From contig JBGQJI010000012.1 in assembly GCA_041498975.1 (NCBI GenBank), positions 1-30,830 on the forward strand: a stretch of DNA of 30,830 nucleotides, written 5' to 3'. Both the position numbers and the translations under genes were made by a program. Positions 5,796-29,987 of this stretch are shown piece by piece (the first letter of the stretch is position 1; the number at the start of each line of letters is the position of its first letter). The DNA is from Candidatus Methylomirabilis sp. (GTDB lineage Bacteria > Methylomirabilota > Methylomirabilia > Methylomirabilales > Methylomirabilaceae). A model generated the notes under the pieces. It searched no databases. It was not told the DNA's origin and worked only from the letters and a program-made list of their open reading frames with translations.

Positions 5796-5814
5796 CGACT
5801 GAAATAGAGACTCG

Positions 5815-8793: not shown

Positions 8794-9046
8794 GGCCGCC
8801 TCCTTGAGGTTGAGTTGTTATGGGCATCAGCAGGATGTAGGGAATTTCCCACCACTGCCGATCTCCGAAGAACGCGATTCATGTGAAATCTTTTGACTAC
8901 GTGCGACATTATTGTAAAATCCACGCCATGTCAACCGATCGGATACCGGAGATTAACCTGCATGGTGAAGGCGTCGCATGCCCTCTCGGACCGGGCAAAA
9001 TCGTCGCCGCTGCGGTCGAACAGCTACTCAGCAGCCCTTTCCCGCG

Positions 9047-9823: not shown

Positions 9824-10490
9824 TGCGGGCGAGAGCTGCCTGGTGGTGGAGCTGGGCGATCGGATCGACATCGCGTTGAACCTGCACGTCCGCGCCCTCT
9901 GTCTGGCCGTCGAACGAGCCACGCTCCCGGGGGTTCAGGAGGCCGTACCCACCTATCGATCGTTGGCGATTTACTACGATCCGCTCGCGATCGACCGGGA
10001 TGTCCTAAAGGATCGTATCAGCGGCCTTCTGGGCTCGTCCGGAGGGGAGGGCGGGCAGCGGCCAAAGCTGGTGGAGATCCCGACCGTCTATGGGGGCGAA
10101 TACGGGCCCGACCTGGAGTTCGTCGGCCGCCACACCGGCCTCCCCCAGGATGACGTGGTTCGCCTGCATGCAGCGCCGCTCTATCATGTCTACATGCTGG
10201 GCTTTACGGCGGGATTCGCCTACCTGGGCGAGTTGTCACAGCGGCTTTCGGTCCCTCGCCTTTCCACACCGCGGTTGAGAGTGCCGGCCGGCTCGGTCGG
10301 GATCGCCGGGACGCAGACCGGCGTCTATCCTCTGGAGAGCCCTGGCGGATGGCATATCATCGGCCGTACCTCCCTTCGTCTCTTCGATGCCGCCCGGAAG
10401 GCGCCGACCCCGATTTCGCCGGGCGACAAGGTCCGCTTCGTACGGATCGAAGAGCGCGAGTACCTGAAGGCGGCGGGTGGAAGCCCTTGA
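9804..10490 (+). CDS. pxpB: 5-oxoprolinase subunit B (KipI/AHS1)
   Basis: VPTYRSL, YGGEYGPDL, YMLGFTAGFAYLG and GVYPLESPGGWHIIGRT. TTG start at 9804 after GGAGG. Confidence 0.95.
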   Translation: MAVRFLDAGESCLVVELGDRIDIALNLHVRALCLAVERATLPGVQEAVPTYRSLAIYYDPLAIDRDVLKDRISGLLGSSGGEGGQRPKLVEIPTVYGGEYGPDLEFVGRHTGLPQDDVVRLHAAPLYHVYMLGFTAGFAYLGELSQRLSVPRLSTPRLRVPAGSVGIAGTQTGVYPLESPGGWHIIGRTSLRLFDAARKAPTPISPGDKVRFVRIEEREYLKAAGGSP

Positions 10491-11565
10491 GGTCGTCAGA
10501 CCAGGATTGCTGACTACCGTTCAGGATCTTGGACGGTTCGGGTATCACAAATATGGAGTGCCGACCTCCGGCGCGATGGATCAAGCAGCATACAGGACCG
10601 CCAACCTGCTGGTCGATAACGAAGAGGGGGCGGCGGCGCTGGAGGTGACGGGCGAGGGGCCCGCTCTCCGCGCGCGTGCCGATCTGACCGTCGCCATCGT
10701 CGGGGCCGAGATGGAGCCGCTTGTCAACGGCAGGCCGGTCGAGTCCGATGCGGCAATCGATATCCGGAGCGGCCAGCTTCTTGAGTTGGGGCGAGCCAGG
10801 CGGGGACTGCGCGCCTATCTCGCTGTTGCCGGAGGGATCGACGTCCCACCCATGCTCGGCAGCCGCTCTACCTGTCTCCCAGCGGCATTCGGAGGCTTTC
10901 ACGGTCGAGCTTTGCGTGAGGGTGATCTCCTGCCGGTTGGCCAGGCCGGGACGCGACGCCTCCCGGTCGCAGGCCGCCGCCTCCCACCGGGATGGTGGGA
11001 CGCTGTAGGTGACGTGCTCACGCTACGCGTCATCCTTGGGCCACAGGACGATCAGTTCACAGGCGAGGGGATTCAGGCCTTCCTGGCCGGAACCTATCGG
11101 GTGATGCCGGAGATGGACCGAATGGGTGTCCGGTTACAGGGTCCGCCGATCGCTCATCGGGCAGGCGCGGACATCATCTCCGATTCGACCCCCTTGGGCG
11201 CGGTGCAGGTCCCGGCCGATGGCCAGCCGATCATCTTGCTGGCGGACCGCCAGACGACCGGCGGCTACACGAAAATTGCAGTGGTCATCGGAGAGGATGC
11301 CTATCGGCTGGCCCAGGCCATGCCGGGTCAGGCCGTCCGCTTCTGTCGGATCTCGATGCCAGAGGCGCGCGATGCCCGGAGGGCCTACGAGGGAAAGTTC
11401 CTGGCGTTGCGGGGTGGCTGGCCGCGGTGGCGAGATAGGCAGAACTATACGCTCACCCTCGGCGGGCAATCGTATCGGATCGGCGTGGAAGAAGGAATGG
11501 GGAAGTACCGGGTCAGTCTTGACGGGCGGACGGTAAGGCAATCCGAGGAAGGGGAGCCGCGGTGA
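10477..11565 (+). CDS. pxpC: 5-oxoprolinase subunit C (KipA/AHS2) with a short C-terminal extension
   Basis: TTVQDLGR.G, GAMD..ANLL, YLAVAGG, LGSRST, DRMG.RL and GAVQVPADGQPIILLADRQTTGGYTKI. Confidence 0.95.
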   Translation: MEALEVVRPGLLTTVQDLGRFGYHKYGVPTSGAMDQAAYRTANLLVDNEEGAAALEVTGEGPALRARADLTVAIVGAEMEPLVNGRPVESDAAIDIRSGQLLELGRARRGLRAYLAVAGGIDVPPMLGSRSTCLPAAFGGFHGRALREGDLLPVGQAGTRRLPVAGRRLPPGWWDAVGDVLTLRVILGPQDDQFTGEGIQAFLAGTYRVMPEMDRMGVRLQGPPIAHRAGADIISDSTPLGAVQVPADGQPIILLADRQTTGGYTKIAVVIGEDAYRLAQAMPGQAVRFCRISMPEARDARRAYEGKFLALRGGWPRWRDRQNYTLTLGGQSYRIGVEEGMGKYRVSLDGRTVRQSEEGEPR

Positions 11566-12008
11566 CTCAGCGTCGATGGGTGGATGGAGTGAAGCGGGTC
11601 GTGCTGGTCAGTGGTCTGGCACTCGCACTTTCAGCGTGCGCGACCTGGCGGATCGAACCGACGTCACCCGGCCCGGGCGTGCCGGTCATCTCGAACCTCC
11701 GGATCGAACCGGAGAAGGTCAGGGTCGGGGAAGACGTGAGACTCAGCTTCGACTTCGAAGATACTGACGCCGACATCACCGAAGCCCACATCTTCCCTTC
11801 CGAGGTTCGGGAGTGGGTCTATACACAAGCGCTTGCGGCGACTGTCCTGGATCTTAGAGGTGAGAAGTTCGGGCAGGCGATCGGCAGGGTCGAGGCGATC
11901 TTCAAGTGGGAAACCGAAGGGATCCGGGTCTTCGAGGTCTTCGTCGTGGACGAGCTGGGTCACACGAGCAACAAGTTGCGGGCCCGTGTCACCGTCAGGC
12001 TCCAATGA
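11562..12008 (+). CDS. Lipoprotein of unknown function (beta-rich, Ig-like)
   Basis: Lipobox LALSA-C. Start overlaps the pxpC stop (GTGA) and its stop overlaps the next start (ATGA). Confidence 0.8.
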   Translation: MTQRRWVDGVKRVVLVSGLALALSACATWRIEPTSPGPGVPVISNLRIEPEKVRVGEDVRLSFDFEDTDADITEAHIFPSEVREWVYTQALAATVLDLRGEKFGQAIGRVEAIFKWETEGIRVFEVFVVDELGHTSNKLRARVTVRLQ

Positions 12009-13015
12009 GGGTGGGGCCTTCTCAGATCTCGGAGACGATCGATCGGATCTGCCTGCTCGGCGAGACGGGGTCAACGAGCCGCGCACGAGACCTCTCCAGA
12101 CTGTACCAGGCTGCCCGGAGCCTGGCCGTGGAGCCGCTCTGTGCGGCGGCGGCCAGACGACTCGAGGCGGCCCTTCGCCCCGGAGCGGCCGTCCTCCTGC
12201 TGACCGGCGCCGGCGCGGCGCCCGCCTTGCCGCGCGGCGAGACCGACGGCCCGCTCGGAGCCGCGGTCCTCGCCCGAGGGCTCGCCCTGGCCTTCGGTGT
12301 GCGTCCGTTCTTGGTGGCGGAGGCCAGGTTCCGGAGACCGATCATGGCGACGCTGGATGCGCTGGCTGACGGCTCCCGGAACGCGGGCTGGCGGCGGGCT
12401 GTCCGTTACGCGCCGTTCCCGCTTCGCCGCGACCGGGCCGGCCTGGCTGCCACGGCCCTGTGGGATCGCGTCAAGCCCGCGGCAGTGATCTCGATCGAGC
12501 GATTGGGGCCGAACGATCTGGGGATCACCCACAACGCGATCGGAGAGGATGTAAGCAGCACCCACGCGGGCGTCGAAGCCCTCTTCGCGCTGGCCCGGCG
12601 ACGCAGGGTCCTGACCATCGGCGTGGGGGACAGGGGAAACGAACTCGGCTTCGGCAGGGTCATGCGCCGCCGGCTGAGGATCCCGGCCATGTCCCGTCGC
12701 TGCGCCTGTCCCTGTCGCTCGCCGATTGCGTGCGCGATCCCAGCCGATCTGGTCGTTGTCTCATCTGTGTCCAACTGGGGCGCCTATGCCATAGTCGCCG
12801 GGCTTGCGCTCGGGTTGGGCGATCCCCGGCTCCTCCATCGCCCCATAGACGAGGCCAGGATGCTGAAAGCCTGTGTGCTGGCGGGTGCCAGGGATGGGCT
12901 CTCTGGGCGGCGCGAACTGACCGTGGATGGCCTGCCGCTGCCGATGCAGCGCGATGTGGTGACGCTCCTCAGGGAAGCCCTGGCCCGGATGCGGCCTAGC
13001 GTTGCCGAGCGGTGA
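12005..13015 (+). CDS. DUF4392 / D-glutamate cyclase-like protein
   Basis: ETDGPLGA, IERLG, TIGVGDRGNELG.G, VSNWGAY and GARDG motifs typical of DUF4392; located next to pxpABC. Confidence 0.88.
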   Translation: MRVGPSQISETIDRICLLGETGSTSRARDLSRLYQAARSLAVEPLCAAAARRLEAALRPGAAVLLLTGAGAAPALPRGETDGPLGAAVLARGLALAFGVRPFLVAEARFRRPIMATLDALADGSRNAGWRRAVRYAPFPLRRDRAGLAATALWDRVKPAAVISIERLGPNDLGITHNAIGEDVSSTHAGVEALFALARRRRVLTIGVGDRGNELGFGRVMRRRLRIPAMSRRCACPCRSPIACAIPADLVVVSSVSNWGAYAIVAGLALGLGDPRLLHRPIDEARMLKACVLAGARDGLSGRRELTVDGLPLPMQRDVVTLLREALARMRPSVAER

Positions 13016-16444: not shown

Positions 16445-16593
16445 ACCGCTGGACAATCCAAAATCGCTTGTTATCGCTTTCGGATTATGGTAAGGGTTGG
16501 GCCGATTGTGGAAGATCCATTCCGGGATTGCGACAGTAAGTTCGTGTAAAGGTTCGGGTCTTCATTTGGAAGGAGACAAAGGGGGTGTCGGTA

Positions 16594-17781
16594 ATGAGAC
16601 AAGGTCTCGGGAAACGCCGACCAGGAGTGTCGTGGCCCATCGTCTCGCTTGTCCTGTTGGTGCTTTTCGTGGTTCCGGACGCGTTTGCACAGACGATTAC
16701 GGCCGAAGGTGTGGCGGCGATCACCGGCAACGTGACGATTGCCCGCGAGAAGGCGATCGATGACGCCCTCCGTCGCGCGGTGGAGCAAGCGGTCGGAACG
16801 CTAATCTCCTCCGACACCATGACCAATAACTTCCAGGTGGTCCACGACAAGATCCTGGCCCAGACGTCCGGCTATGTGAAGAATTATCAGATCGTGAAGG
16901 AAGAGCGGGTTGGTCAGGAGTTCCGTGTCACTGTCATGGCCGAGGTTGGGCGAGAGAACCTTCAGCGGACCCTGGAAGCACTGGGACTGATCCAGGTGCT
17001 AAAGGAGAAGCCGAAGGTCATGGTCATCATCGAGGAGCAGGTGGGAGGGCTCTTCGGGACCACCGAGTGGAGAAATGTCGGTCAGGCCGAGTCCACGATC
17101 GTGGACCGGCTGATGGCCGCGGGCTTCAGCGTCGTGGATCCGGCCATGGTCCGGACCAACACATCTCGCGAGAAGGCAATCCTGCTGCTAGAGGGAGACG
17201 AGAAGGCCGCTGTCGCAGCCAGCATTCAGTACGGAGCTCAGGTGATGATCACAGGCCGGGCTTTCTCCAAGAATGCGGGTGGCAGGCTGCTTGGAACACA
17301 GATCCAGTCGATACAGGCTACCTTGCAAGCGAGGGTGTATCGAGCCGACGATGGCCGCATCATCTCGTCACGCAGCGAGCAGGCGACCAAAGCCCACATC
17401 GACGAAATGCAGGGCGGGGCCCTCGCCATTAAAGAGGCGAGCGAGAAGCTGTCTGACGCCTTGATCAAGGACATCTTGGACAGTTGGAAGAAGGAGGTCT
17501 ACGGCCGATCCCAGGAAATCACCCTCGTCATCTCCGGCCTGGTTTCCTACCAAGACTTGACGGCTGTCAAGAAGTTCCTGGAGAACGACCTGCAAGGGGT
17601 CAAGGCGGTCCACCAGCGTAACTTCACCCAGGGCACGGCAGAACTCCAGCTCGACTATGGCGGGAAGACCAGTTTTATTGCCGATGAGCTGGCGTCCAAG
17701 CGGTTCACCGGCTTTCGCCTCGAACCGATTAATGTGACCGCGAACCGGCTTGATCTCCGCGTCGTGATCCTGCGGAAGTGA
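16594..17781 (+). CDS. Exported protein with FlgT N-terminal-like domain and a CsgG/TolB-N-like middle domain
   Basis: Signal peptide ending AFA-Q. AEG.A..AREKAIDDALRRAVEQAVG..I.S.T...N......I...TSGYV..Y.I..E....F.V.V.AEV is the FlgT_N pattern, followed by KPKVMVIIEE..GF.VVD..GAQVMITG. Confidence 0.78.
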   Translation: MRQGLGKRRPGVSWPIVSLVLLVLFVVPDAFAQTITAEGVAAITGNVTIAREKAIDDALRRAVEQAVGTLISSDTMTNNFQVVHDKILAQTSGYVKNYQIVKEERVGQEFRVTVMAEVGRENLQRTLEALGLIQVLKEKPKVMVIIEEQVGGLFGTTEWRNVGQAESTIVDRLMAAGFSVVDPAMVRTNTSREKAILLLEGDEKAAVAASIQYGAQVMITGRAFSKNAGGRLLGTQIQSIQATLQARVYRADDGRIISSRSEQATKAHIDEMQGGALAIKEASEKLSDALIKDILDSWKKEVYGRSQEITLVISGLVSYQDLTAVKKFLENDLQGVKAVHQRNFTQGTAELQLDYGGKTSFIADELASKRFTGFRLEPINVTANRLDLRVVILRK

Positions 17782-17833
17782 ATCGGGCTTCGTATAGGTC
17801 GGTCACTCGCCGATGGGTAAGGGGTGATCAGTG

Positions 17834-18331
17834 ATGAGAGCTCAGATCCGAACGGGTATTATGATGTGTCTCGTCGCAGTAGCACTCCTCTTGGCATATT
17901 CGAGTGAGGATGCGGCATCGGCCACTCTCGACCAGCATGCCTCGGAATCTGAGGCCGCCTATGATCAGGAATCTTCGCAAGGACGCCCGGTGAATTGGGG
18001 GGCGGTCTGGGGAGCGGTGCGGGAGTTTGAGGCACAGACCTACGCGCGCGTTCGTCCCCGGCAGTTCTCGATCGAGATCGCGATGCCTCAACCCTGGCAC
18101 TACATGCAGAGCGCTCCGGTGTTTGCGGCGAACCCGCCCAGCTCTATGACGCCAGGCTACGACGGTTATTCTTACGGCCCCATTTATCCCTATGCTCCTC
18201 CGTACGCCGGCTGGTGGGGTCTATCGCCCTGGCTTCACAGGTGGAGCACGATCTCTTTCAGCCAACACCACCGGCACCACGTAGGAGGGCATGGAGGGCA
18301 TCATGGGGCCAGAGGCCACCACCATCGCTAG
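17834..18331 (+). CDS. Small exported protein with Tyr/Pro-rich segment and His/Gly-rich C-terminus
   Basis: Hydrophobic N-terminal signal; YGPIYPYAPPYAGWWG; C-terminus HHRHHVGGHGGHHGARGHHHR. Confidence 0.65.
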   Translation: MRAQIRTGIMMCLVAVALLLAYSSEDAASATLDQHASESEAAYDQESSQGRPVNWGAVWGAVREFEAQTYARVRPRQFSIEIAMPQPWHYMQSAPVFAANPPSSMTPGYDGYSYGPIYPYAPPYAGWWGLSPWLHRWSTISFSQHHRHHVGGHGGHHGARGHHHR

Positions 18332-18484
18332 TTAGCATCCAATGATCGCTCTGGCCCGTCTCCTGACGGTGGGTGTCTGGCCTCTTCCGGATCTGGTGTT
18401 TCGAGGACTGCGGGGGTGAGGAAGGAATCGGTTGGAAAAGCAAGGCTGACCACCAGGGGAGACGACGCTTGCGGGAGGTTTGTC

Positions 18485-21400
18485 ATGAAGCGCATTTGTA
18501 GGTTGCTTGCTGTTTGGTCCGTGCTCGCGGTGATAGGCAGCTTCCCTGTCCTGCCTTCGCTTGCCAAGGAGCCAGAGTCTCTGAAGGACGATATTCAAGA
18601 TGTCCTCAGGGACATCGCTGAGTTCGCTAATCGAAATGGGGGCAGTATTGTTCCAGATTCAGCACTGGAGTTGGGGATCTCCCGCCTGGAGCATGATCTG
18701 CCCTTTATGGATCGTCTGCTGGCGGCGCTGCCGTGCGGCAAAAAAGCGCCGGACGTCCTCGACGTGAAAGCCGCCCTCGACGCTGTCCGTCGCTTGATCC
18801 CGACAGTGCCGTCCCAGCCCACGGAAAAGAACATAGACGATCTCAAGAAACGCATCGAGTTCCTTGACAAAGTGCATATCACAACGGTTAACCTCATCAA
18901 GTTGAAGGTCATCAGCGGTATGACCACGGCACTCATAGCCGCGGTCCCAGCCTCAGGTAAACCGGGTGCCTCAGGGGTCGACTTCGGCAATGTCCTCGAC
19001 CAGGGCCTGAGCCACATGGGGGTCAATCCCGCGGACACCGGTACGGTGAAGAAATTTCCGGGCCTGCCCCAGTATCGACAGTATCTATATGGTGAAAACA
19101 AGGATGAGTTTCAAAGGTTTGCTCAGCAAAAGGTCGATGAGGGGCTGCGGAAGTATCAGGGTCCCCCCGGGGGGGGACCACGGTTCACCGAGTACGACGT
19201 GTACCTGTGGGCGAACGAATTCACTCGCACCAAGAGCGCGGCGGATAAGAAGGCTGCCGAGCAACAGCTTGAGCAAAAGAAAAAGGAACTGACTGTACTC
19301 CTGCCAAAGAGCCAGGAAGCGGAGAAAAGGAAAAGGTACTTCGAGGGTCTGGTGGCTCGCTTGGAAGCGGCATGGAACGCGTCACTATGGGTGAAGGACA
19401 AGACTCAGTTCGAGAAGCCCGGGGCCGTCATCACCGTTTCGGTTGTCGATGCCGCCTCCGGGAGCCCGATCGGGGACGCGAAAGTTGGTCTCACCCCGCC
19501 CTCGGGAACGATGAGCGCGTCGATGAGCTCGACGAAGTACGTCGGCGTGGATCAGCGAGCGTATAGTATCGTGGCGGAGCACCGAGATTACAACAGCAGT
19601 AGCGCCTCAGTGACGGTGACGGACTGCAAGGATCACCCGGTGGTTGTCCGGCTCGTCCCGCTCCCGAAGCCACCCGCTGTAGCGACTCTCCACGTTTCGG
19701 TCATGGATGAAGCCACTAGGAAAGCGGTGCCTAACCCGAGAGTCGATCTCACCCCGGCCGCCGGCTGGAAAACCTTCCTGCGGGACCCGGACCGAATGGT
19801 GTTCGAGAAGCTGCCGCCGGACTCCTATAGCGTCACGGCCGAGGCCGAAGGCTACACCAGCGGCAGCGACCGGGTGACAGTGATTGAGCAAAAGGATTAC
19901 TCGGTGGTGATTTGGCTGAAGAAGAAAGAGGAGGACACGGGGCCTGTGCCGCACCTCACGGCACGGCTGGACTGTGGCGGCCTCCTAGAAGTGGTGCCTG
20001 GCCAAGGCAGCAAGGCCTGTACGGTAATTGTGGAAGGGTGGCGCAGCAACACCGTTGATCCGGTGGAGGTGGTGCTCTTCCCGAACCCTCCCCCTGGAGG
20101 CATCGTGATGTCTGGCAACACCTCGGTGGACCCGGGCAATATGTACACCGCTGGTGTCTCGGACAAACGGGACGAATACCCAATCAGTGAGTACTTCCGG
20201 GCCGACGACAGTGCACCGCCAGGAACCACGCCATTCCAGATCGTCGTCCGCCAGCGCGGCGCCGGCAGCGTCACGCTTCCGCTCTCGGTCATCGTGCTCC
20301 CTAAGAAGGGTGGGCCCGTCGGGCCTGCACCGGGTTCGCCGTCGTCGCCGCCCATATCCAGCACCACCGGCGGGCAACTGAGCGCGCGCCTGGACTGTGG
20401 CGGTATCCTACAACTGGTGCCGGGCCAAGTCAGCAAGAGCTGCGGTGTGGTCCTCCAGGGGTGGCGTAGCAACACAGCCGACCGCGTCGAGGTGGAGGTA
20501 GTCTATCCGCGGCTGAGCAGCGGGATTGAGGTGTTCCCCGGAACCACTTCCCAGGACCCGGGCAATATGTACACTGCGGGCGTATCGGATCACCAAGGCG
20601 AATACATCTTCTCCGAGGGGTTCTCCGCCAGCGACAGCGCCCTCCCTGGGACCACACCGGTGCGGGTCGTCGTTCGCCAGCGCGGCGCCGGCGAGCTCAC
20701 CCTCAGCCTGAACGTGACGGTCCTCGCCAAGGGCACGCCCGATATTCTCGGGATTGGCACGCCCCCTCCCGTCCAAGCCGGAACCGGGGGCAATATCTGC
20801 GTCTGGCGGTACAAGCTCATCGGCGATCCATACCCGGACTGCTGGCATTTCGTGGCCTCCACCTGCGAGAACAGACGGTATGCGAATAAGCCGGACTACC
20901 CGCTGGCAGGCTCGAACATGAACTGGGGGGACGCCGACCGGCTGATCGGGGAGCAGAGCCGCTACTTCAGCGACGCGTGTCGAGGAATCGCCCCCGGCCC
21001 GTCGCAGGCGGCAGCGCCCCCGCCGGCGACCGTGGCCGCCGGCAGCGGAGGGGAGTACTGCGTCTGGCGCTATAAACTCTTCGGCGATCCCCCGGCCTGT
21101 TTCCACTTCGCGGCCGCGGCGTGCGATACGCCCCGGTACACCAATCCCCGGGGTGGCTACGAGTTGGTCGGCTCTGGCATGAAGCGGTCGGAGGCCGACG
21201 CGCGGATTCAGGAGCTCAGTCGCTACTTCGACGACGCCTACGCGTGTCGCGCAGCCGCCGCTACACCTTCCACGAAACCGGCCACGCCTCCACCGTCCAC
21301 CCCTTCGGACTCTAGTGATTCCACCCCGCCGACCCCCCCCATCGGCCCTACGGAGCCTTCCGAACCCCTCCCTCCCACAGGCCCCGCCCAACCTACCCGC

Positions 21401-22441
21401 TACCTGTCTGCCTTTCAGGTGGCATGCCGCCCCACGACGATAGTGGCCAAGGAACAGTCGGCGACCTGCCAAGCGTCGGGGGTGTACTCGGACAAGCCGG
21501 ACCAGGCTGTGAACCTGACGGCCCCGCCCACGACCTGGGAAAACGGTCCTACATTCAGCTCCGATGTGGACGGTGAGTACACGGTCACGGCCTCCCTCGA
21601 GGGGTTGAGCGGATCGGCGACGGTGAGGGTGAAGAAGAAAGCGGACATCGCCGGCGCCACTAAAGAGGCGGGGAAGGTCCAAGCGCAGGATCCGGGGGGT
21701 AAGGCGCCCCCCACGCAACCAGACACGCCCGGTCAGACACAGGGGGGCTATGCGGAGCCACCGCCCGGCTCGACCCCAGGCGGGGGTCAAGGTGGCACTC
21801 CAGGCGCGCCGGGACTACCGCTGCCTCCGGGATTGCAGCCCGGAGTCGTCGTCGGAGGTCTGGTCAGCCCACCCGGGTTGGGGCCGTTGGGGGGGCCGCT
21901 GCCTGGAGGGCCTCCGGTGGGCGGAGGGGGTGGCCCGTATGGACCGTCCACCGGAGGTGGATCACCAGGGTCAAAGCCAGCGAAGACCGCCGGGGGGGCG
22001 CCTCCGAGGACGCCGCCGGTGAAGACCCCGCCCACCACGCTGCCGCCGGTCACGCCGCCCGGGCCCCCTCCGCCGCCCCCGACCCCTGGGTCAGGCGCGC
22101 AGGGTATTGACTTGTCAGGCACGTGGCAGGCAACCTACAACGCAGACTTTTTAGGCAATTTAAGGTTTACTATGACCCTCCGCCGCGTCGCTGCCGGTAA
22201 GTGGGAAGGTCCATTGGACTACGATGTTGTTGACTGTCCTGAGATGAGCTTCAAGACCCAGGCAACGCTTCAGGCTACGGGCGTCGGAAAAGTACATCTG
22301 ACATATAACAGTCCAGCAAAAGACTGTCCAAGATATGTTGGGAAGATAGTGGCAGGGGCTCAGCAGGCAGATGGGACGTACACCAACTCCCAAATTACCT
22401 TCGGGGCTTCTCCCAACACTGTGACGTACACGAGAAAGTAG
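18485..22441 (+). CDS. Large exported modular protein: helical N-domain, 2 carboxypeptidase-regulatory-like domains, 2 long Cys/Ig-like repeats, 2 short Cys-rich repeats, Ig-like domain, Pro/Gly linker, C-terminal beta domain
   Basis: RBS GGGAGG; signal MKRICRLLAVWSVLAVIGSFPVLPSLA; two V.V.D..SG.PI..A.V.L..Y.V.A.A.GY units; internal repeats visible at protein and DNA level. Confidence 0.85.
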   Translation: MKRICRLLAVWSVLAVIGSFPVLPSLAKEPESLKDDIQDVLRDIAEFANRNGGSIVPDSALELGISRLEHDLPFMDRLLAALPCGKKAPDVLDVKAALDAVRRLIPTVPSQPTEKNIDDLKKRIEFLDKVHITTVNLIKLKVISGMTTALIAAVPASGKPGASGVDFGNVLDQGLSHMGVNPADTGTVKKFPGLPQYRQYLYGENKDEFQRFAQQKVDEGLRKYQGPPGGGPRFTEYDVYLWANEFTRTKSAADKKAAEQQLEQKKKELTVLLPKSQEAEKRKRYFEGLVARLEAAWNASLWVKDKTQFEKPGAVITVSVVDAASGSPIGDAKVGLTPPSGTMSASMSSTKYVGVDQRAYSIVAEHRDYNSSSASVTVTDCKDHPVVVRLVPLPKPPAVATLHVSVMDEATRKAVPNPRVDLTPAAGWKTFLRDPDRMVFEKLPPDSYSVTAEAEGYTSGSDRVTVIEQKDYSVVIWLKKKEEDTGPVPHLTARLDCGGLLEVVPGQGSKACTVIVEGWRSNTVDPVEVVLFPNPPPGGIVMSGNTSVDPGNMYTAGVSDKRDEYPISEYFRADDSAPPGTTPFQIVVRQRGAGSVTLPLSVIVLPKKGGPVGPAPGSPSSPPISSTTGGQLSARLDCGGILQLVPGQVSKSCGVVLQGWRSNTADRVEVEVVYPRLSSGIEVFPGTTSQDPGNMYTAGVSDHQGEYIFSEGFSASDSALPGTTPVRVVVRQRGAGELTLSLNVTVLAKGTPDILGIGTPPPVQAGTGGNICVWRYKLIGDPYPDCWHFVASTCENRRYANKPDYPLAGSNMNWGDADRLIGEQSRYFSDACRGIAPGPSQAAAPPPATVAAGSGGEYCVWRYKLFGDPPACFHFAAAACDTPRYTNPRGGYELVGSGMKRSEADARIQELSRYFDDAYACRAAAATPSTKPATPPPSTPSDSSDSTPPTPPIGPTEPSEPLPPTGPAQPTRYLSAFQVACRPTTIVAKEQSATCQASGVYSDKPDQAVNLTAPPTTWENGPTFSSDVDGEYTVTASLEGLSGSATVRVKKKADIAGATKEAGKVQAQDPGGKAPPTQPDTPGQTQGGYAEPPPGSTPGGGQGGTPGAPGLPLPPGLQPGVVVGGLVSPPGLGPLGGPLPGGPPVGGGGGPYGPSTGGGSPGSKPAKTAGGAPPRTPPVKTPPTTLPPVTPPGPPPPPPTPGSGAQGIDLSGTWQATYNADFLGNLRFTMTLRRVAAGKWEGPLDYDVVDCPEMSFKTQATLQATGVGKVHLTYNSPAKDCPRYVGKIVAGAQQADGTYTNSQITFGASPNTVTYTRK
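19955..20731 (+). repeat. Intragenic tandem repeat A (two units of ~117 aa)
   Basis: Units 19955-20305 and 20378-20731 share LxARLDCGG..VPGQ.SK.C.V...GWRSNT.D.VEV..DPGNMYTAGVSD..SE.F.A.DSA.PGTTP..VVRQRGAG..TL.L.V.VL.K. Confidence 0.9.
20786..21247 (+). repeat. Intragenic tandem repeat B (two Cys-rich units of ~65 aa)
   Basis: Units ~20786-20980 and ~21047-21247 share GG..CVWRYKL.GDP..C.HF.A..C...RY.N....Y.L.GS.M....AD..I.E.SRYF.DA. Confidence 0.9.
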
Positions 22442-22476
22442 TGATCGCAGTTCTACAGACCGGCGGCCTCTAGTGA

Positions 22477-22509
22477 ACCGCCCGCGCCGGATGCGCCGGC
22501 TCGGGCGGT
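22477..22509 (+). other. GC-rich intergenic hairpin just upstream of the Rhs RBS
   Basis: ACCGCCCGCGCCGG-ATGCG-CCGGCTCGGGCGGT with no U-tract, followed by AAGGGGGG and ATG 22525. Confidence 0.5.
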
Positions 22510-22524
22510 AAGGGGGGATATCAC

Positions 22525-25500
22525 ATGCCTATGATTGCTAGACGGCTGACTGCGCTGATCGTTCTCGTGGCATTCGTCCTTGAGCCGTTCATGGGTCTCA
22601 TCGGCCGTGAACTGGCGGAGGCCGATTCCCGGGGGCGAGCCTCCCGTGTCGCGGCGTTCGATAACGCGCTGGCCTTGCACTTCGGTCGGGGCACGTCCTC
22701 CGATAGGCTTTTCGTCCACCATCCCGGCGACCCGGTCAACCTCCGCACGGGAAATCTCACGCTTCCCGGGATTGACCTGTCTGTCCCCTCTCGAGGCCCG
22801 TCGCTGGAGGTTACGCGGAATTACAACAGTCGGTCGTCTGCGGCCGGTCTCTTCGGACTGAAGTGGCAGTCCAACCTGGAGATGCGGGCGCTCCGCCTTG
22901 CGGGAAGGATTGCCATCGTGGAGCCCGATGGCGCCCTGATCGAGTTCAGGCCGGACGGCAACACCCCGGGCGCTGCGACCGGCGGATCGCGGTACAGAGC
23001 CACCGTGCGCGGCCCGGAGCAGGCGGAGGAGAGGCCGGACGGGTCACTCCTGAGGCAGACGGCCGCCGGGACTCGGGAGCTGTTCGATCGACAGGGCCGG
23101 CTGGGACGGATCGAGGACCGAAACGGCAATGCCCTCCGCTTGGAGTACCAGGGCGACAAGCTCATGAGAGTCACGAGCGATTCAGGGCGGGGGCTGACCT
23201 TTATGTATGGCGGTCCCGGCGGCCGATTCGTCGTGATGGTGAAGGACCCGGCCGGAGGGATCATTCGCTACCAGTACGACACGCGAGGCCGCCTGATCAG
23301 CGTCATCGACCAGGCCGGGCGCGAGGGACGCTACGAGTACGATGGCCGCGATCGGCTGGTCGGGCTGATCTACACCGACGGCGCGGAGACGCGGATGACC
23401 TACGAGGGCGATACCGGCGCGGTCCTGGCGCAGCAGGGACCTGGCCCTGGGACGACGACCTACCGATACGAGTGGGAGCCGGGCGGCGTGCTGTCTCGTC
23501 GGACGATGGTCACCGACGTTGCGGGCCGTCGGACCGTCTACGAATACGCTCAAGGCGGACGGGAGTTGGCCGTCACTGAGCCTTCCGGCCGTCGGACGGC
23601 CGTGCTCTACGATCCAGACTTCCACCAACCGCTAAGCGTGAGCGGGCCGAAGGGGATCCTCGCCTCCTATCAATACGATAGTTCGGGACGCCTCTTGAGT
23701 GAGACGAGCGCGCTGCGGCGGACGACCCGTTACCGCCACGACCCGGTCTCCGGCCGGCTGCTCGAGGTCATCGACGGGGCAGGCCACCGTGCCCGCTTCG
23801 AGTACGATGCCAGAGGGAACCGGCTGGCGGCGGTTCGAGGGGACGGGGCGGCGACGCGCGGCGTGTACGATGCGCGCGGCCAGATCGTCGAGCGGATCGA
23901 TCCAACCGGCGCCCGGACACGGTTTGGCTATGACCAGGCGGGAAACCTGATCGAGCAGGCGGACGCCGCCGGGCAGAAGACGCGATACGAGTACGACGTT
24001 CTCGGCCGGCAGGTCAGACGAATCGGGGCCAGTGCGGCGGAGACTCGTTGGGCCTACAACGGGGTCGGAGACCTGATCAAGAAGGTGGACGCCGAGGGGC
24101 GAGAGACGGTCTACCAGTATGACCCGATGCGCCGGTTGAGTGCGGTGACCGACTCGGCCGGCCGCGTCACCCGGTACGAGTATGATATCGGCGGCCAGCT
24201 CGTCGCCGTCGTCGATCCGGCGGGTGGGAGGACGGTCCGAAGCTACACGCCGGATGGGCTCCTGCGGGAGATCACAGACGCGAGCGGGGTCGTCCTCCGG
24301 TACGAGTATGATCCGCTTGGTCGGAGAGTCGCCCGGATCGACGGCCTGGGCCACCGCTCGCGGTACGAGTACGACGCCGAGGGCCGCCTCGCCACCTTGC
24401 GGGACCCGACTGGAAACGAGCTTCGACGTGCCTACGACGCTGGCGGGCGGCCAACGGTCCTGGCGAACCAGTCGGGCCGGACTACTCTGACGTATGATCC
24501 CGCCGGCCGCGTCGAGGCGTTGACCGAGCCCGACGGGAGGACCTGGCGGTACCGGTTCGGCCCGGTGGGGAAGGTCACGGAGGTGATCGATCCGGCCGGC
24601 GGCAAGGCCGCGTATCGGTACGATGCAGCGGGACGGCTCCTTGAGCAACTCGATCCGGCCGGCCTGAGCGTCCGCTACCTCAGAGACCAGCTCGGCCGAG
24701 TGGCTGCCGTCGAAGACCCGCTTGGGCCAGTGATGCGTCTCGCTTACGACGACTGCGGCAACGCAGTCTCCAAACTCTCACCCTCTGGAAAGGGGGTCAG
24801 ATATGGATACGACCGCCTTGGGCGCGTTGTTAGTATCAGCTATCCCGACGGCAGCGAGCGACGATTTCAATATGACCGGGCCGGAAATGCCGTGGCTGCA
24901 AGGCAAGGCGAGGAAGCAATCCAGTACAGGTACGACGCCTTGAACCGCCTGGTTAGTGTACAGTACCCTCGCTTGAACAAGACGATCCGCTACGCCTATG
25001 ACGCCGCCGGGCGCCGGACGGAAATGGTGGACACCGCCGGAGGCGTGACTCGGTACCGTTACGACGCGGCCGGCCGCCTCGCAGAGCTGACACCGCCGGA
25101 TGGCGCCATTCTACGTTTTGCCTATGACCCTGCCGGGCGCATGACGGAGGTTCGCTACCCCAACGGGGTGACGGGCAGGATCTCCTACGAGCTAAATGGC
25201 CGTGCGAAGGGTGTAGGGTATGAGCGGGCCGGACAACCGATCGCAGGACGTAGCTACCAGTATGATCCCTCAGGTCGCCCCGCGTCTGCGACCGCCCATG
25301 ACGGCTCGATGGAGCGGTACGGCTATGATGGGCTTTCACGGCTTACGACGGTAACGGGCGCCAAAGGGGATCGGGTTGAGTATGCGTACCTCCCTGACGG
25401 CAGCCGGGCTCGGACGTCCTCAGGTTCGTCCTCGGTCAGTTACAGCTACGACCCGGCGGGTCGCCTCGTCGCCGCTGGAGGCGTGACGTTCAGGCATGAC

Positions 25501-27453
25501 GCTGACGGGAACCTCATCGAGCGGAAGGGGCCTGAAGGCGTGACTGGGTATGAGTATGACGCCGACCGCCGATTGGTCAAGGTAAGCACGCCGAATGGTC
25601 AGACGATCGCCTACGGCTACGATCCGGATGGGCAGCGGTTGTGGCGGAGCGATATGGCAGGGACCGCCTACTTCCTCCATGACGGTCTCAACCTCGTCGC
25701 CGAGTTGGACGACAAGTTCTCGGTGAAGGCCCTGTACCTTCACGGCGAGGGGCTGGACGCTCCCCTCGTCATGATGCGGGCAGGGAAGAGTTATTACTAC
25801 CATCCGGACCGATTGGGCAACATCCTTGCGCTGACCGATGATCGTGGGCAAGTCGTGGCCTCGTACACATATGACCCCTTCGGCTCTCCCCAGTCCCTCC
25901 AGGCAACTGTGCCGAATCCATTCCTCTTTACGGCCCGGGAATACGATTCGGCCACCCGCCTCTATCACTTCCGTGCCCGCGAGTACGACCCAGCGTTAGG
26001 CCGATTTCTCACGAAAGATCCGTTGCCGGGCAATCTCCTTGATCCTCGTACGCTCCAGCCGTACGTGTACGTGTCCAACAATCCCTTGTCCCTTACTGAC
26101 CCGCTTGGGTTAGTCGGGTTTAGTGATCCTCCGAGTATTCCGGGTCTCCCCTCGTCAGGTTATCTCCAACCAAGCGACATCGCTAAAATCACAGACCCCG
26201 GTATGCGCGTCAACGTGCTCCAGCAGATCAATCAGGTGGCCACTCAGTACCCAGGACGGTACAGCGTCGGCATCACTCCGGGTAATCCCGGAACGCTGAC
26301 GGTGTGGCCGAATAATGGACCGCCGCAGACCATCTATCCGGAGCCACTCGGGGTGCCTGGCGGCATGGCAAATATAGCCATCCCTGAAGGACCCGTCGAA
26401 ATCGTGCCTGCGCCTAAGCCACCAGGAGGCATGACATTACCTGTCACGCCTGAGCCTGTTGCGCCCGTTACACCTGCGGAACCTGTCGTGCTCGAACCGG
26501 TTGCTCCGGGGGGCGCTGCCGGTGGGGCAGGGGAGGGTGCGGGCATTTCCGTGGGCGGGGCGCTGGGCGTGGTGGCGTTCGGGGTTGCGGTGATTGCAAG
26601 CGCCGTCCATATCGCCACGGCGGACGATAAAACAGGGGCGACCATACAGGAAACTGGTGGCTGGGTCGGCGCGATATATGGGGCCGGAGTTGGGGCATTT
26701 CTCTCTCCGGTTCTCGGTCCGCTTGGCCCGATCGGTGGCGGACTCATCGGCGGATTCATCGGGAGCGTAGTCGCTGGCTGCCTCTACGGCCCCTGTCCGC
26801 CGCCGGGCCCGTCGCCTTACCTCCCACCGGTGGAGCCGCCGCCATCGAGCCCGACCGGGAGTGTGCCCGCGTCCGGCACAAGCGACGGAAACCCCGTGCT
26901 CACCCCTCTACCTGACCCCGGCACGCCATCGGTGACCGTGGCGCCCTTTCCGCCGGTACACCCACCAAAACTTCCATCGGGGGAATCTGGACCGCCCCCC
27001 GACCTTGTCTCCCCGCCCTCCACTGAGCCCGAGCCTGGGAGCATGGGCACCGGGGCAGTCCCCAACATCAAGGGCGCAACAGAAGCAGCGGGCGAGTCCC
27101 AGCAAACGGCTCCCTGGGGGGCGTCACAGCAGCCCGCCACTCAATCGACGCAATCCGGGCCGCAGGGGCCGGGTTACGGAGCGCCGGAGCCGCCACCGGC
27201 CTCCCCGCCGCAGGGCAGCGCGGGCACGGCACCGGCTTATCCTGGGTCCCCGGGGTATCCGCCGTCGCCGGGCACCGGGTTCACGCCCCCTGGCTATAGT
27301 CTGCCACCGATGGATGATCCCGGGGAATCGCTTGGTTCTGGTGGAAGTGGCTCGAGGGGAGGGCGCGGACATCCCCCGAGGGGCGGTGGAAGGAAGGACC
27401 CAAAGCCGGGGACACCTGTGACGCCTCCCTGCAACCCTTGCGGAGGAGCGTGA
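22525..27453 (+). CDS. Sec-signal Rhs/YD-repeat protein (DUF6531 + YD repeats + Rhs-associated core + 446-aa C-terminal extension)
   Basis: Signal-like N-terminus ending AEA; DUF6531 pattern GDPVNLRTGN..DL..LEVTRNYNS..FG..W; many YD.xGRL repeats; core YYHPDRLG, YDPFG, REYD..TRLYHFRAREYDP.LGRFLTKDP and NNPLSLTDPLGL (DPLGL at 26098-26112). Confidence 0.93.
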   Translation: MPMIARRLTALIVLVAFVLEPFMGLIGRELAEADSRGRASRVAAFDNALALHFGRGTSSDRLFVHHPGDPVNLRTGNLTLPGIDLSVPSRGPSLEVTRNYNSRSSAAGLFGLKWQSNLEMRALRLAGRIAIVEPDGALIEFRPDGNTPGAATGGSRYRATVRGPEQAEERPDGSLLRQTAAGTRELFDRQGRLGRIEDRNGNALRLEYQGDKLMRVTSDSGRGLTFMYGGPGGRFVVMVKDPAGGIIRYQYDTRGRLISVIDQAGREGRYEYDGRDRLVGLIYTDGAETRMTYEGDTGAVLAQQGPGPGTTTYRYEWEPGGVLSRRTMVTDVAGRRTVYEYAQGGRELAVTEPSGRRTAVLYDPDFHQPLSVSGPKGILASYQYDSSGRLLSETSALRRTTRYRHDPVSGRLLEVIDGAGHRARFEYDARGNRLAAVRGDGAATRGVYDARGQIVERIDPTGARTRFGYDQAGNLIEQADAAGQKTRYEYDVLGRQVRRIGASAAETRWAYNGVGDLIKKVDAEGRETVYQYDPMRRLSAVTDSAGRVTRYEYDIGGQLVAVVDPAGGRTVRSYTPDGLLREITDASGVVLRYEYDPLGRRVARIDGLGHRSRYEYDAEGRLATLRDPTGNELRRAYDAGGRPTVLANQSGRTTLTYDPAGRVEALTEPDGRTWRYRFGPVGKVTEVIDPAGGKAAYRYDAAGRLLEQLDPAGLSVRYLRDQLGRVAAVEDPLGPVMRLAYDDCGNAVSKLSPSGKGVRYGYDRLGRVVSISYPDGSERRFQYDRAGNAVAARQGEEAIQYRYDALNRLVSVQYPRLNKTIRYAYDAAGRRTEMVDTAGGVTRYRYDAAGRLAELTPPDGAILRFAYDPAGRMTEVRYPNGVTGRISYELNGRAKGVGYERAGQPIAGRSYQYDPSGRPASATAHDGSMERYGYDGLSRLTTVTGAKGDRVEYAYLPDGSRARTSSGSSSVSYSYDPAGRLVAAGGVTFRHDADGNLIERKGPEGVTGYEYDADRRLVKVSTPNGQTIAYGYDPDGQRLWRSDMAGTAYFLHDGLNLVAELDDKFSVKALYLHGEGLDAPLVMMRAGKSYYYHPDRLGNILALTDDRGQVVASYTYDPFGSPQSLQATVPNPFLFTAREYDSATRLYHFRAREYDPALGRFLTKDPLPGNLLDPRTLQPYVYVSNNPLSLTDPLGLVGFSDPPSIPGLPSSGYLQPSDIAKITDPGMRVNVLQQINQVATQYPGRYSVGITPGNPGTLTVWPNNGPPQTIYPEPLGVPGGMANIAIPEGPVEIVPAPKPPGGMTLPVTPEPVAPVTPAEPVVLEPVAPGGAAGGAGEGAGISVGGALGVVAFGVAVIASAVHIATADDKTGATIQETGGWVGAIYGAGVGAFLSPVLGPLGPIGGGLIGGFIGSVVAGCLYGPCPPPGPSPYLPPVEPPPSSPTGSVPASGTSDGNPVLTPLPDPGTPSVTVAPFPPVHPPKLPSGESGPPPDLVSPPSTEPEPGSMGTGAVPNIKGATEAAGESQQTAPWGASQQPATQSTQSGPQGPGYGAPEPPPASPPQGSAGTAPAYPGSPGYPPSPGTGFTPPGYSLPPMDDPGESLGSGGSGSRGGRGHPPRGGGRKDPKPGTPVTPPCNPCGGA

Positions 27454-27626
27454 ACCCCCGGGAATTGTTGAGCGCCGGGCTGGCGCTCGAGGGGGAATGA
27501 GATCGATTCCATTGGATTGCCATTGCGACTTGCAATTCAAGCGGACATTCTGAGCAGCATCGCGGCCGGATCGGTCTGAGGTTCAATTTCTGAGAGAGCA
27601 CACACCAACTTGAGGAGATGAAAGGT

Positions 27627-28562
27627 ATGGAGATCCGCCACTGTAGGATTGGGTTGATTGTCACCTTGGGGGTCGCCGTTGTCGTTGGCTCGCCGTTCAG
27701 TCCGAAGAGTGTCTACGCGCAGGGGAAGGTCCGGATCGCGGTGACGGCATTCGAGAACAAGGCGAAGAGTCCCTACCTCGATCCCAGTTGGAAGATCGGC
27801 GAGGGGCTTGCCGAGATCCTCACCACCGAGCTGGCCAAGACCGGCCAGTTTATCGTTGTCGAGCGGCAGGCGCTTGGCGACATCGTGAAAGAGCAAGAGC
27901 TGGGACAGACCGGCCTGGTTCGCGGTGAGACAGCGGCCAGGACCGGGGAGATCATGGGGGCGCAGATCGTGGTGCGCGGCGCGATCACAGAGTTCGAGGA
28001 GCGGGCGAGTGGAGGCGGCGCCGGGCTCCAGGTACGAGGGTTCCAAGGTGGTGGCGGGGTCAGCAACGCCCACGTTGCGCTCGACATTCGCCTGATCGAC
28101 ACGTCAAGCGGACAGGTGATCGCCTCGCACCGTGCGGCAAAGTCGGTCCCGTCCGGCGGCGGGAAGCTCGATGCCAGGATCGGAACCGTCCAATTCGGGG
28201 GCGAGGCCTTCTTCCAGACGCCATTCGGTCAAGCGACGCGGGCAGCGATGGACGATGCCCTTCAGTTCATCATGGCGACCGCCTTCAAAGCTGTGGTTCC
28301 GTCTTTCTCCATCGTCAAGGTGGAGGGGGGGACGGCCTACATCAATGCGGGCACGAATTCGAATGTCAGGGTCGGCGACGTGTTCATGGTGTACACGAGG
28401 GGAGAAGAGCTGATAGATCCGGATACCGGCCTGAAACTGGGCAGCGACGAGAGGATGATCGGGTCGATCCAGATCACCTCGGTGCAGGAGAAATTTTCGA
28501 TCGGGACGATCAGGGGTAGTACGGGCGCCATGAAGCGAGGCGATCTGGTCAAGGTGCGATGA
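27627..28562 (+). CDS. CsgG/HfaB-family protein with FlgT-C-like domain (non-lipidated signal)
   Basis: RIAVTAFENK, LAEILTTELAKTGQFIVVERQAL..IVKEQEL, GAQ..VRGAITEFE and VALDIRLID..SG.VI. C-terminal YINAG....V.VGD.F.VY..GEELIDPDTG..LG. Signal ends VYA-Q. Alternative start 27618. Confidence 0.85.
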   Translation: MEIRHCRIGLIVTLGVAVVVGSPFSPKSVYAQGKVRIAVTAFENKAKSPYLDPSWKIGEGLAEILTTELAKTGQFIVVERQALGDIVKEQELGQTGLVRGETAARTGEIMGAQIVVRGAITEFEERASGGGAGLQVRGFQGGGGVSNAHVALDIRLIDTSSGQVIASHRAAKSVPSGGGKLDARIGTVQFGGEAFFQTPFGQATRAAMDDALQFIMATAFKAVVPSFSIVKVEGGTAYINAGTNSNVRVGDVFMVYTRGEELIDPDTGLKLGSDERMIGSIQITSVQEKFSIGTIRGSTGAMKRGDLVKVR

Positions 28563-28830: not shown

Positions 28831-28985
28831 GATATTTCAGGCCGTTGGTAAGTCTATCTCTGTTCTTGCGATTATGAAATGTCTTGACTTTTGGCACCGG
28901 AAGCGATAACTGAATCACCGGATTACTAATCGGCGTCGTCGTGGATGGGTAGAATGTGCTTGCCGCATACGGGAGGTCATTCGGG

Positions 28986-29987
28986 ATGAACCGCGCTCTT
29001 CTCCCCCTCGCCCTGAGGAAGTTCGTGTTCGCGGCGGTTGGCAGTGCCGCCCTGCTCATCGCCGGGTGTGCAGCCGTACCGCCTCCTGGTGGGCCCGGGC
29101 AGGAGGCTGCGGCCCTCCAGGCTGCTCAGCTCACCTATCCCCCTTACGATGGGCTCAAGAAACGGTTGGCTGTCATCCGGTTTGAGAACAAAGTCAAGAC
29201 TGCGCTTCCCGATCCCAGTTGGAAAATCGGAGAGGGGCTGACGGAAATGATCACGAGCGAGCTGTTCAAGACCGGCCGCTTTATCATGGTGGAGCGCGCA
29301 GCCCTTGCCGACATCGTGAAGGAGCAGGAGTTGGGACAGACCGGCCTCATCCAGAAGGAGACTGCAGCCAAGGTCGGGGAGTTGCTAGGGGCTCAACTTC
29401 TCATCACTGGAGCCGTGACGGAATTCGAGGCTCAGGCTCGGGGAGGCGGAGGGGCGGTGGGGTTCCGCGGAATCGGCGTCAACCTGCGCACACAGAGCGC
29501 GCACGTTGCGGTCGATGTTCGCCTGGTCGATGCCTCAACTGCCCAGATTCTGACCTCGATGAATGCGGAGGCATCAGCGTCGTATACGGGGCTGGGCTTT
29601 ACGGCCAAAATAAAGGGTGTGGATTTTGGCTCTGAAGGGTTTCAGAATACCCCGTTGGGTCAGGCGACCCGCGAGGCGATCTACAAGGCCGTCACGCAGA
29701 TTATCAAAGAGATGGAGAGGTTCCCGTGGACCGGCCGGGTGATCCAGGTCAAGGAGGGGGACATCTATGTGAACGCGGGAGTCAATGTCAACCTGAAACC
29801 CGGTGTGAAGCTCGCCGCGTACGTCAAAGGAGAGGATCTGTTCGATCCCGGCACGGGGCTGAATCTCGGGAGCAGGGACACCCTCGTTGGCACCGTCACC
29901 GTGAGAGATGTACAGGAGAAGTTCAGCATCGGCACATTCGCTGGGAATGGAGCCCTGAAGCGAGGCGACCTCTTGAAGTTCCAGTGA
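28986..29987 (+). CDS. CsgG/HfaB-family lipoprotein with FlgT-C-like domain
   Basis: RBS GGGAGG; lipobox LIAG-C; YDGLKKRLAVIRFENK, KTGRFIMVERAAL..IVKEQEL and GAVTEFE. Close paralog of 27627-28562. Confidence 0.88.
   Translation: MNRALLPLALRKFVFAAVGSAALLIAGCAAVPPPGGPGQEAAALQAAQLTYPPYDGLKKRLAVIRFENKVKTALPDPSWKIGEGLTEMITSELFKTGRFIMVERAALADIVKEQELGQTGLIQKETAAKVGELLGAQLLITGAVTEFEAQARGGGGAVGFRGIGVNLRTQSAHVAVDVRLVDASTAQILTSMNAEASASYTGLGFTAKIKGVDFGSEGFQNTPLGQATREAIYKAVTQIIKEMERFPWTGRVIQVKEGDIYVNAGVNVNLKPGVKLAAYVKGEDLFDPGTGLNLGSRDTLVGTVTVRDVQEKFSIGTFAGNGALKRGDLLKFQ

Follow-up and report, generated by a model that had tools for sequence, protein, structure and literature searches.

Introduction

Rhs proteins are generally portrayed as shells whose body is constant and whose C-terminal toxin tip varies, and in Gram-negative bacteria as delivered mostly by type VI secretion. 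In curli (type VIII) secretion, the channel CsgG acts with CsgE and CsgF, and the substrate CsgA carries an N-terminal targeting segment. C-terminal cargo domains are known elsewhere, namely the C-terminal domain of type IX substrates and the C-terminal 8-stranded barrel of Slam/type XI cargo, and FlgT, FlgO and FlgP are the H-ring proteins of the Vibrio flagellum. Here we describe a locus that shares features with all of these systems. It lies in a stretch of 30,830 nucleotides (nt) from Candidatus Methylomirabilis sp. (GCA_041498975.1, contig JBGQJI010000012.1, positions 1–30,830, forward strand), referred to below, in its whole length, as the window. Two neighbouring genes, for a giant protein and for an Rhs/YD-repeat protein, each encode a copy of a motif of ~45 amino acids (aa) near the C-terminus. 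We consider it somewhat probable that each peptide is a diverged copy of the opening block in a C-terminal tail module, specific to a small group of NC10-type bacteria, which belongs to an accessory locus bounded by FlgT_N-like and CsgG-like genes.

Rhs/YD-repeat polymorphic toxins have variable C-terminal tips, and C-terminal displacement has been described for Rhs genes (PMC2935791). Like such toxins, the window Rhs protein has DUF6531, RHS repeats, a YD shell and an Rhs-associated core ending in DPLGL, and its C-terminal modules are common to non-Rhs scaffolds, as in polymorphic toxins. Unlike them, it belongs to a set of proteins in which the extreme C-terminus is constant (an immunoglobulin-like, or Ig-like, domain plus a tail), with the variation falling between the DPxGL site and that tail. 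No obvious immunity gene follows the window Rhs gene; two CsgG-like genes stand there instead. Also unlike the known toxins, TssC was found neither in the window's genome (G000, 85% complete) nor in a related genome of the genus (G009, 94% complete), in a search that covered the single type VI secretion system (T6SS) family PF05943 (VipB/TssC) and recovered the E. coli control.

The locus is curli-like in that two CsgG-family genes adjoin genes for proteins with long disordered segments rich in Gly, Gln and Pro. However, CsgE and CsgF were not found in either genome (E. coli control positive) and the shared element is C-terminal, and for these two reasons the cluster is not a curli system. The locus proteins are also large, 1300–2000 aa with sizeable folded parts, and the CsgG-like proteins have further profile matches to FlgT_C/FlgT_M and LpoB. 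Like type IX and type XI cargo, the locus proteins join unrelated N-terminal parts to a conserved C-terminal module, one form of which ends in an 8-stranded beta-barrel; unlike that cargo, the module has no sequence match or significant fold match to the solved domains, and the machinery genes for its putative export are of another type. Proteins flanking the pair match the FlgT_N, FlgT_M, FlgT_C and FlgO profiles, most of them below Pfam cut-offs, which resembles the Vibrio H-ring, but within the window the locus has Rhs and giant proteins in place of flagellar genes. We offer the resemblances to type IX/XI cargo domains and to the H-ring as analogies and not as memberships. Full-text literature searches brought up no publication that connects CsgG-like genes with Rhs and Methylomirabilis/NC10.

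A shared C-terminal tail in an Rhs protein and a giant protein

The two proteins and the parts of them that concern us here are as follows.

18416–22441, + strand: giant protein, 1341 aa from a GTG start (open reading frame).
21404–21634, + strand: last Ig-like domain of the giant protein, residues 997–1073 (AlphaFold2 beta-sandwich, predicted local distance difference test score, pLDDT, ~95).
21641–21772, + strand: motif copy 1, core DIAGAT at 21644–21661, start of the tail module (translation, matrix and flank tests, family alignment).
21773–22099, + strand: Pro/Gly-rich linker of the giant protein (composition).
22100–22438, + strand: predicted C-terminal 8-stranded beta-barrel of the giant protein, 113 aa, of no known family (AlphaFold2, pLDDT 92.7).
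22525–27453, + strand: Rhs/YD-repeat protein, 1642 aa (RHS_repeat PF05593, E=4.8e-139; DUF6531; TEN_YD-shell).
26509–26796, + strand: Gly-rich hydrophobic (glycine-zipper-like) segment in the Rhs C-terminal region (read from the translation).
27061–27201, + strand: motif copy 2, core NIKGAT at 27064–27081 (translation, matrix and flank tests).
27202–27450, + strand: Pro/Gly/Ser-rich end of the Rhs tail, last residues CNPCGGA at 27430–27450 (translation).

Both peptides quoted in the initial annotation are exact translations of the window, copy 1 reading ADIAGATKEAGKVQAQDPGGKAPPTQPDTPGQTQGGYAEPPPGS and copy 2 reading PNIKGATEAAGESQQTAPWGASQQPATQSTQSGPQGPGYGAPEPPPA, and each is followed by a Pro/Gly-rich tract as that annotation had said. 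In the giant protein the last folded domain leads directly into the motif, the Pro/Gly tract and finally the 113-aa C-terminal domain; residues 1076–1228 of this tail are 28% Pro and 26% Gly. AlphaFold2, run with a family alignment, folds residues 997–1073 as the Ig-like sandwich and gives pLDDT below 50 and no secondary structure from residue 1078, that is from the motif onward, where the tail is predicted to be disordered.

The Rhs protein is a true Rhs by its defining features. PF05593 is matched in 23 stretches, TEN_YD-shell at E=1.4e-14 and TIGR01643 as well, and Rhs_assc_core (TIGR03696, residues 1116–1196, E=2.2e-20) ends in DPLGL at residues 1192–1196 (nt 26098–26112). The motif follows ~320 residues past DPLGL, with the Gly-rich hydrophobic segment and a Pro-rich stretch upstream of it. 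That hydrophobic segment is kept in the ortholog of the window Rhs in G009 (RhsC) and is present by eye in P0043 and P0051. No Ig-like domain precedes the motif in the window Rhs or in RhsC, where the Pro-rich stretch is found instead. Over the first 300 of 447 residues the Rhs tail is 59% identical to that of RhsC, and the match stops before the motif, whose position corresponds to the start of the family cassette in RhsC. P0012 is a second ortholog of the Rhs tail, and neither ortholog has the motif core in unaltered form.

The identity of the motif became clear from relatives. With the G009 Rhs tail as query, 13 proteins were retrieved; precomputed Pfam matches mark every one as Rhs, and two are sourced as candidate division NC10. 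All 12 of those fetched end in an Ig-like domain and a tail that starts P-[DN]-I-x-G-A, after which the tail is conserved in blocks, invariant Cys residues included, up to a Cys/His-rich terminus. The downstream blocks are a Gly/Ser/Thr block, a QPGL block, a Cys-containing block and the terminus itself. For 12 of 15 family proteins, the last 320 aa can be aligned at E<=1e-2 with residues 985–1232 of the giant protein. The best case is P0044 (41% identity over 125 columns, E=8e-14), and in this alignment the Ig-like domain continues unbroken into the motif. The giant's copy thus stands at the homologous position, directly after a homologous Ig-like domain. In our family alignment (A8), 14 of 16 rows have [DN]IxGA at the motif column, which makes the motif the opening of a C-terminal tail module that is conserved.

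The first block of the module, as read from the sequences, has the consensus P-[DN]-I-x-G-A followed by a Gln/Gly/Pro-rich stretch. The full module comprises the Ig-like domain, the [DN]IxGA block and a disordered Pro/Gly linker, and it finishes in one of two ways, with a Cys/His-rich terminus or with an 8-stranded beta-barrel. Its carriers are large exported proteins that are otherwise unlike, Rhs/YD-shell proteins and non-Rhs giants, which are encoded side by side. P0014, a barrel-ended fragment of the giant type, has the [DN]IxGAT core after its Ig-like domain. It agrees with the Rhs copy at 8 of 11 positions (E=0.036) and with the giant copy at 13 of 23 (E=2.9e-4), and its tail beyond the core shows clear homology to the Rhs tail of G009 (E=6.4e-11). 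The other giant-type relatives are P0008, P0013 and P0024. An 8-residue longer form of the motif is common to P0014, P0044 and both window copies.

The best-conserved family blocks sit further down the tail, and both window proteins are without them (the Cys-containing block was judged by eye). Of the family's longer Cys/His-rich terminus the window Rhs retains just CNPC, and the giant protein has the barrel at that place. We read the two window copies as real but strongly diverged members, which have kept the first block and have none of the downstream ones.

Two further observations concern the family. P0043, an Rhs protein of 1745 aa, has the motif block twice, at residues ~1461 and ~1611, on either side of its Ig-like domain. 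The C-termini of P0041–P0052, P0005 and P0012 share a conserved Cys/His-rich stretch, C-x3-C-H and then C-H-C, which may bind metal or haem or form a disulfide knot.

The terminal barrel

The C-terminal domain of the giant protein is predicted as an up-and-down barrel of eight strands. Against the PDB, Foldseek returned nothing at E<=1e-3, the best entries being designed barrels and lipocalin-like proteins, and structure matches in the Atlas were to unnamed clusters. A barrel profile had 24 matches at E<=1e-3 in 1.84 billion representatives. In all ten of the matches fetched, the barrel lies at the C-terminal end or within 20 residues of it, and it also terminates the Rhs proteins P0009 and P0010. 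Small secreted proteins of 341–417 aa (P0018, P0021, P0022 and P0028) end in it too; their Cys-rich N-terminal parts look PAN/WSC-like by eye. Among 251 genomes of the phylum the profile matched one, the window's own, and a profile search of genome contigs yielded none. Complex prediction for the barrel with the two CsgG-like proteins scored 0.00 (‘no answer’) and is evidence in neither direction.

A locus bounded by FlgT_N-like and CsgG-like genes

Downstream of glnA, the window has a same-strand run of genes for an FlgT_N/DUF2066-like protein, a small protein, the giant, the Rhs and two CsgG-like proteins. The members of this run that flank the giant and Rhs genes are listed here.

16585–17781, + strand: FlgT_N/DUF2066-like exported protein, 398 aa, the upstream flank (Pfam FlgT_N, E=1.4e-11; DUF2066, E=8e-6).
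17831–18331, + strand: small aromatic-/His-rich protein, 166 aa, with an N-terminal hydrophobic segment (translation).
27618–28562, + strand: CsgG-like protein 1 (CsgG + FlgT_C), signal peptide without lipobox by eye (Pfam CsgG, E=3.8e-39).
28956–29987, + strand: CsgG-like protein 2, lipobox LLIAGC by eye (Pfam CsgG, E=4.6e-42).

G009 has four tail matches, all in one syntenic locus that is split over two contigs. Contig C27 carries glnA, an FlgT_N-like gene whose product is 83% identical to the window's, two small open reading frames, an AbiEii-like gene, RhsA and RhsB; contig C45 carries a tail remnant, RhsC, two CsgG-like genes, a protease gene and genes for an extracytoplasmic function (ECF) sigma factor and an anti-sigma factor. 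The window shares this frame, its giant gene standing where G009 has RhsA and RhsB. CsgG-like protein 1 is 77% identical to its G009 copy, and CsgG-like protein 2 has a partner copy there as well.

In both genomes, every tail-bearing protein is encoded between the FlgT_N-like gene and the two CsgG-like genes. Close copies of the CsgG-like pair were found in 2 of the 20 genus genomes, namely the tail-bearing ones. The FlgT_N-like gene is also found in G015 (79% identity), on a contig that ends 175 nt past the gene. On metagenome contig L016, a gene that ends in the barrel has a CsgG-like gene (78% identity to the window's first) directly behind it, and then the start of a second one. The claim that the two proteins are tied to one system is supported by this confinement of tails and CsgG-like pair to the same locus, and the homology of the two motif copies is supported as well.

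The three paralogous tails of G009, which have differing upstream regions, are 56–66% identical as proteins; codon positions 1 and 2 agree at 66–76% and position 3 at 36–50%. Third positions have drifted and the protein has been kept, which points to old copies under purifying selection, acting at the protein level, rather than to products of recent conversion.

Several observations were made beside these. On C45 (L005), at 75–257, just upstream of the Rhs ortholog, a short frame corresponds to the final ~55 residues of the family's tail (E=4.7e-8); this remnant either belongs to the end of the neighbouring Rhs gene, which the contig break truncates, or is a tail left behind. The AbiEii-like nucleotidyltransferase gene of C27 (L026, 12395–13009, minus strand) lies between the FlgT_N-like gene and RhsA and has no counterpart in the window. 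The small protein at 17831–18331 has no Pfam or NCBIfam match. Metagenome locus L014 encodes a homolog (33% identity, E=4e-15), placed ~1.25 kb downstream of a gene of Rhs type that ends in the barrel, and on that account the small protein may be another component of the system.

How far the motif pair stands out from chance

The likeness of the two peptides stands out from simple shuffles, but not once search space and composition are allowed for. Their Smith–Waterman score is 67, when shuffles average 37–39 (standard deviation 7) and reach that score in 3 of 5000 and 14 of 5000 cases. The limits of these peptides were chosen after inspection. A test that allows for the choice searches both disordered tails for the highest-scoring 45x45 window pair; its score is 81, and here block shuffles do as well in 19 and in 27 of 150 cases. 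BLASTP of the two peptides alone finds 19 of 45 residues identical at E=5e-4, in a search space of merely 44x47. Aligning tail to tail through the motif, with tail limits chosen by hand, gives a score of 193 that was reached by 1, 2 and 0 of 400 block shuffles. Because significance is lost in the stricter tests, the pair taken alone is borderline. At the DNA level 71 of 141 alignment columns are identical, so that the copies have undergone no recent copying or gene conversion, and the pair belongs to none of the 20 families listed of the 48 from a DNA repeat search on both genes.

The relatives sharpen the comparison. Against an ungapped 27-column matrix built from P0014 and P0044, 1–3 of 5000 shuffles did as well as the giant copy and 18–27 of 5000 as well as the Rhs copy; in the reverse direction, from the window copies to P0014 and P0044, there were 0 of 2000 each. 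The 18 residues that follow the six-residue core are alike in register. Of 20000 shuffles, 300 did as well for giant against Rhs, 33 and 45 for giant against P0014 and P0044, and 1071 and 439 for Rhs against the same two. The Ile of the motif is the sole Ile in each window tail (153 and 216 residues) and has the same I-x-G-A-T setting in both. Conservation is confined to about the first 25 residues, and the remainder of the 45 aa is compositional in its likeness.

A number of results weigh against membership of the window copies in the family, or against the reach of that reading. Whole-protein BLASTP of giant against Rhs did not list the motif alignment, and composition-corrected BLASTP (modes 1–3) had none at E<100, in keeping with the window-pair test above. 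Hidden Markov models (HMMs) from the non-window members give scores that 257–335 of 500 shuffles match for the giant and 63–77 of 500 for the Rhs; for further non-window family profiles the figures are at least 900 of 1000 and at least 1030 of 2000, and with a family HMM over the first 50 positions both window tails fall below most shuffles. Neither window motif rises above shuffles against the tails of P0005, P0012, P0008 and P0011. P0014 and P0044 were chosen for their long form of the motif, so that the matrix and flank tests are partly circular in the six core residues, and their matrix misses the 14 short-form tails (95 to 1782 of 2000 shuffles as good). The E=2.9e-4 of giant and P0014 is not reproduced when the tail cuts are shifted by 1–2 residues. 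The nearest Rhs orthologs, P0005 and P0012, have the motif in a form 8 residues shorter, and the [DN]IxGA core is missing from P0008, P0013, P0024 and P0009. The motif has its fixed position in 14 of the 16 aligned rows, and in the nearest relatives of both proteins it is degenerate or missing. As for the locus, the context of tail-bearing genes is legible in two genomes and three short metagenome contigs, and one of these (L014) has a barrel-ending Rhs-type tail followed by other genes, with no CsgG-like gene in the 1.8 kb present. We nevertheless regard the similarity as real, because relatives show the motif at the homologous position of a conserved tail.

What the tail may do

We propose, tentatively and with clearly less assurance than we attach to the module itself, that the whole tail rather than the 45-aa piece alone would serve as a common handle by which the CsgG-like and FlgT-like proteins of the locus export the carrier proteins to the outer membrane or tether them there. 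The Pro/Gly linker would tether the protein in extended form, and whichever end the tail has, barrel or Cys/His-rich, would be a docking or stopper part. The [DN]IxGA block may be a contact point or a mere module boundary. The window Rhs appears to have lost its Ig-like domain. Recombination between two motif copies flanking that domain, arranged as in P0043, would give the Ig-less form of the window Rhs and RhsC, and this is probably how the loss occurred.

Alternatively, the tails may be homologous but passive, a flexible Pro/Gly stalk or spacer spread by domain shuffling of the C-terminal displacement kind, with the CsgG-like and FlgT-like genes as mere neighbours in an island. We think this possible, though on the unlikely side. 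In its favour are the predicted disorder of the segment, the shortness of the motif core and its loss in several relatives, and the mosaic make-up of the tails, with a barrel or a Cys-rich end and with the Ig-like domain present or absent; the two motif copies of P0043 would permit recombination around that domain, and the entire locus is an accessory island in 2–3 of 20 genomes of the genus. Counter to this, the G009 paralog tails have kept their protein sequence behind differing upstream regions while third positions drifted, which points to selection on the sequence, and the downstream tail blocks with their invariant Cys are conserved across 12 Rhs proteins.

In its strongest form, the reading of the initial annotation is that the CsgG/FlgT machinery recognises the ~45-aa peptide itself as a signal for targeting, docking or processing. 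Of that interpretation, homology and membership of one system have stood, and the signal has become improbable. The block does hold a fixed position at the tail start in 14 of 16 aligned proteins, it is the one Ile-containing element outside Pro/Gly in either window tail, and its carriers are restricted to this locus. Against this, conservation across the family is limited to ~6 core residues, the nearest Rhs orthologs are 8 residues shorter, and three giant-type relatives lack the block. Such weak conservation of [DN]IxGA makes it unlikely that the block is the whole signal. A profile of the two copies brought up no further member in the window's own genome, where the next best match had E=0.19; the best among 40 relatives had E=0.0018, and the two best there were spurious, in frames overlapping other genes. 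The known signal on a CsgG substrate is, moreover, N-terminal.

Least probable of all is a chance likeness of two low-complexity regions rich in Pro, Gly and Gln: the selection-corrected window-pair test, the silence of composition-corrected BLASTP and family HMM scores no higher than shuffles would suit it, but the giant copy stands at the homologous site directly after a homologous Ig-like domain, the Rhs copy stands where its ortholog has the family cassette, the matrix tests leave few shuffles as good, the flanks match in register and both tails have their one Ile within I-x-G-A-T.

Further features of the giant protein and the window

The database form of the giant is P0007, 1318 aa, which is compatible with an ATG start at 18485. 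It has a CarboxypepD_reg domain at residues 429–499. Residues 337–497, around this domain, weakly match the model of the anammox S-layer glycoprotein Kustd1514 (E=6.8e-6); at 23.7 bits against a cut-off of 1400, the match fits a cell-surface protein and assigns no family. Two internal duplications, at 19951–20495 and 20760–21237, represent repeated domains, one pair with conserved Cys/Trp; the units measure 122 nt (73% identical, 423 nt apart) and 70–81 nt (70–71% identical, 261 nt apart). Searches with the two parts of the giant in 40 related genomes had no matches outside the window's own genome.

G000 has a second Rhs gene of another type (NHL, Big_7, DUF6531, RHS repeats) on contig C58 (L028, 3–4196, minus strand), with its 3' end cut off where the contig stops; its neighbours encode a GAF/PAS histidine kinase and an AraC-type response regulator. 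Upstream of the locus, window 8978–13015 holds metabolic genes for LamB/YcsF, two carboxyltransferase-domain proteins and a D-glutamate cyclase-like protein, the first three of which we take to be 5-oxoprolinase genes of the pxpABC type. Genes for ribose-5-phosphate isomerase, fructose-1,6-bisphosphatase (FBPase) and a DeoC/LacD-family aldolase lie at 5058–7794.

Implications

The order of parts in these proteins is reversed compared to the usual Rhs: the very C-terminus is constant, is common to a non-Rhs protein and is under selection. Rhs and giant genes stand beside CsgG-like and FlgT-like genes in genomes in which TssC was not found. A bolder proposal, which we hold to be rather unlikely as a whole, would make the Ig-like domain and tail a new C-terminal cargo tag, carried by Rhs shells and giant adhesin-like proteins, exported or anchored at the outer membrane by a CsgG-like/FlgT-like ring. 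The [DN]IxGA block would be the first recognition element, and NC10 bacteria would have a T6SS-independent route for Rhs proteins.

If the tail is indeed a handle for those neighbours, Rhs proteins would be exported or displayed in a way that is new, and the CsgG fold would have been put to a new use. Even if it is only a stalk, the tail module and the orphan 8-stranded barrel remain new family definitions.

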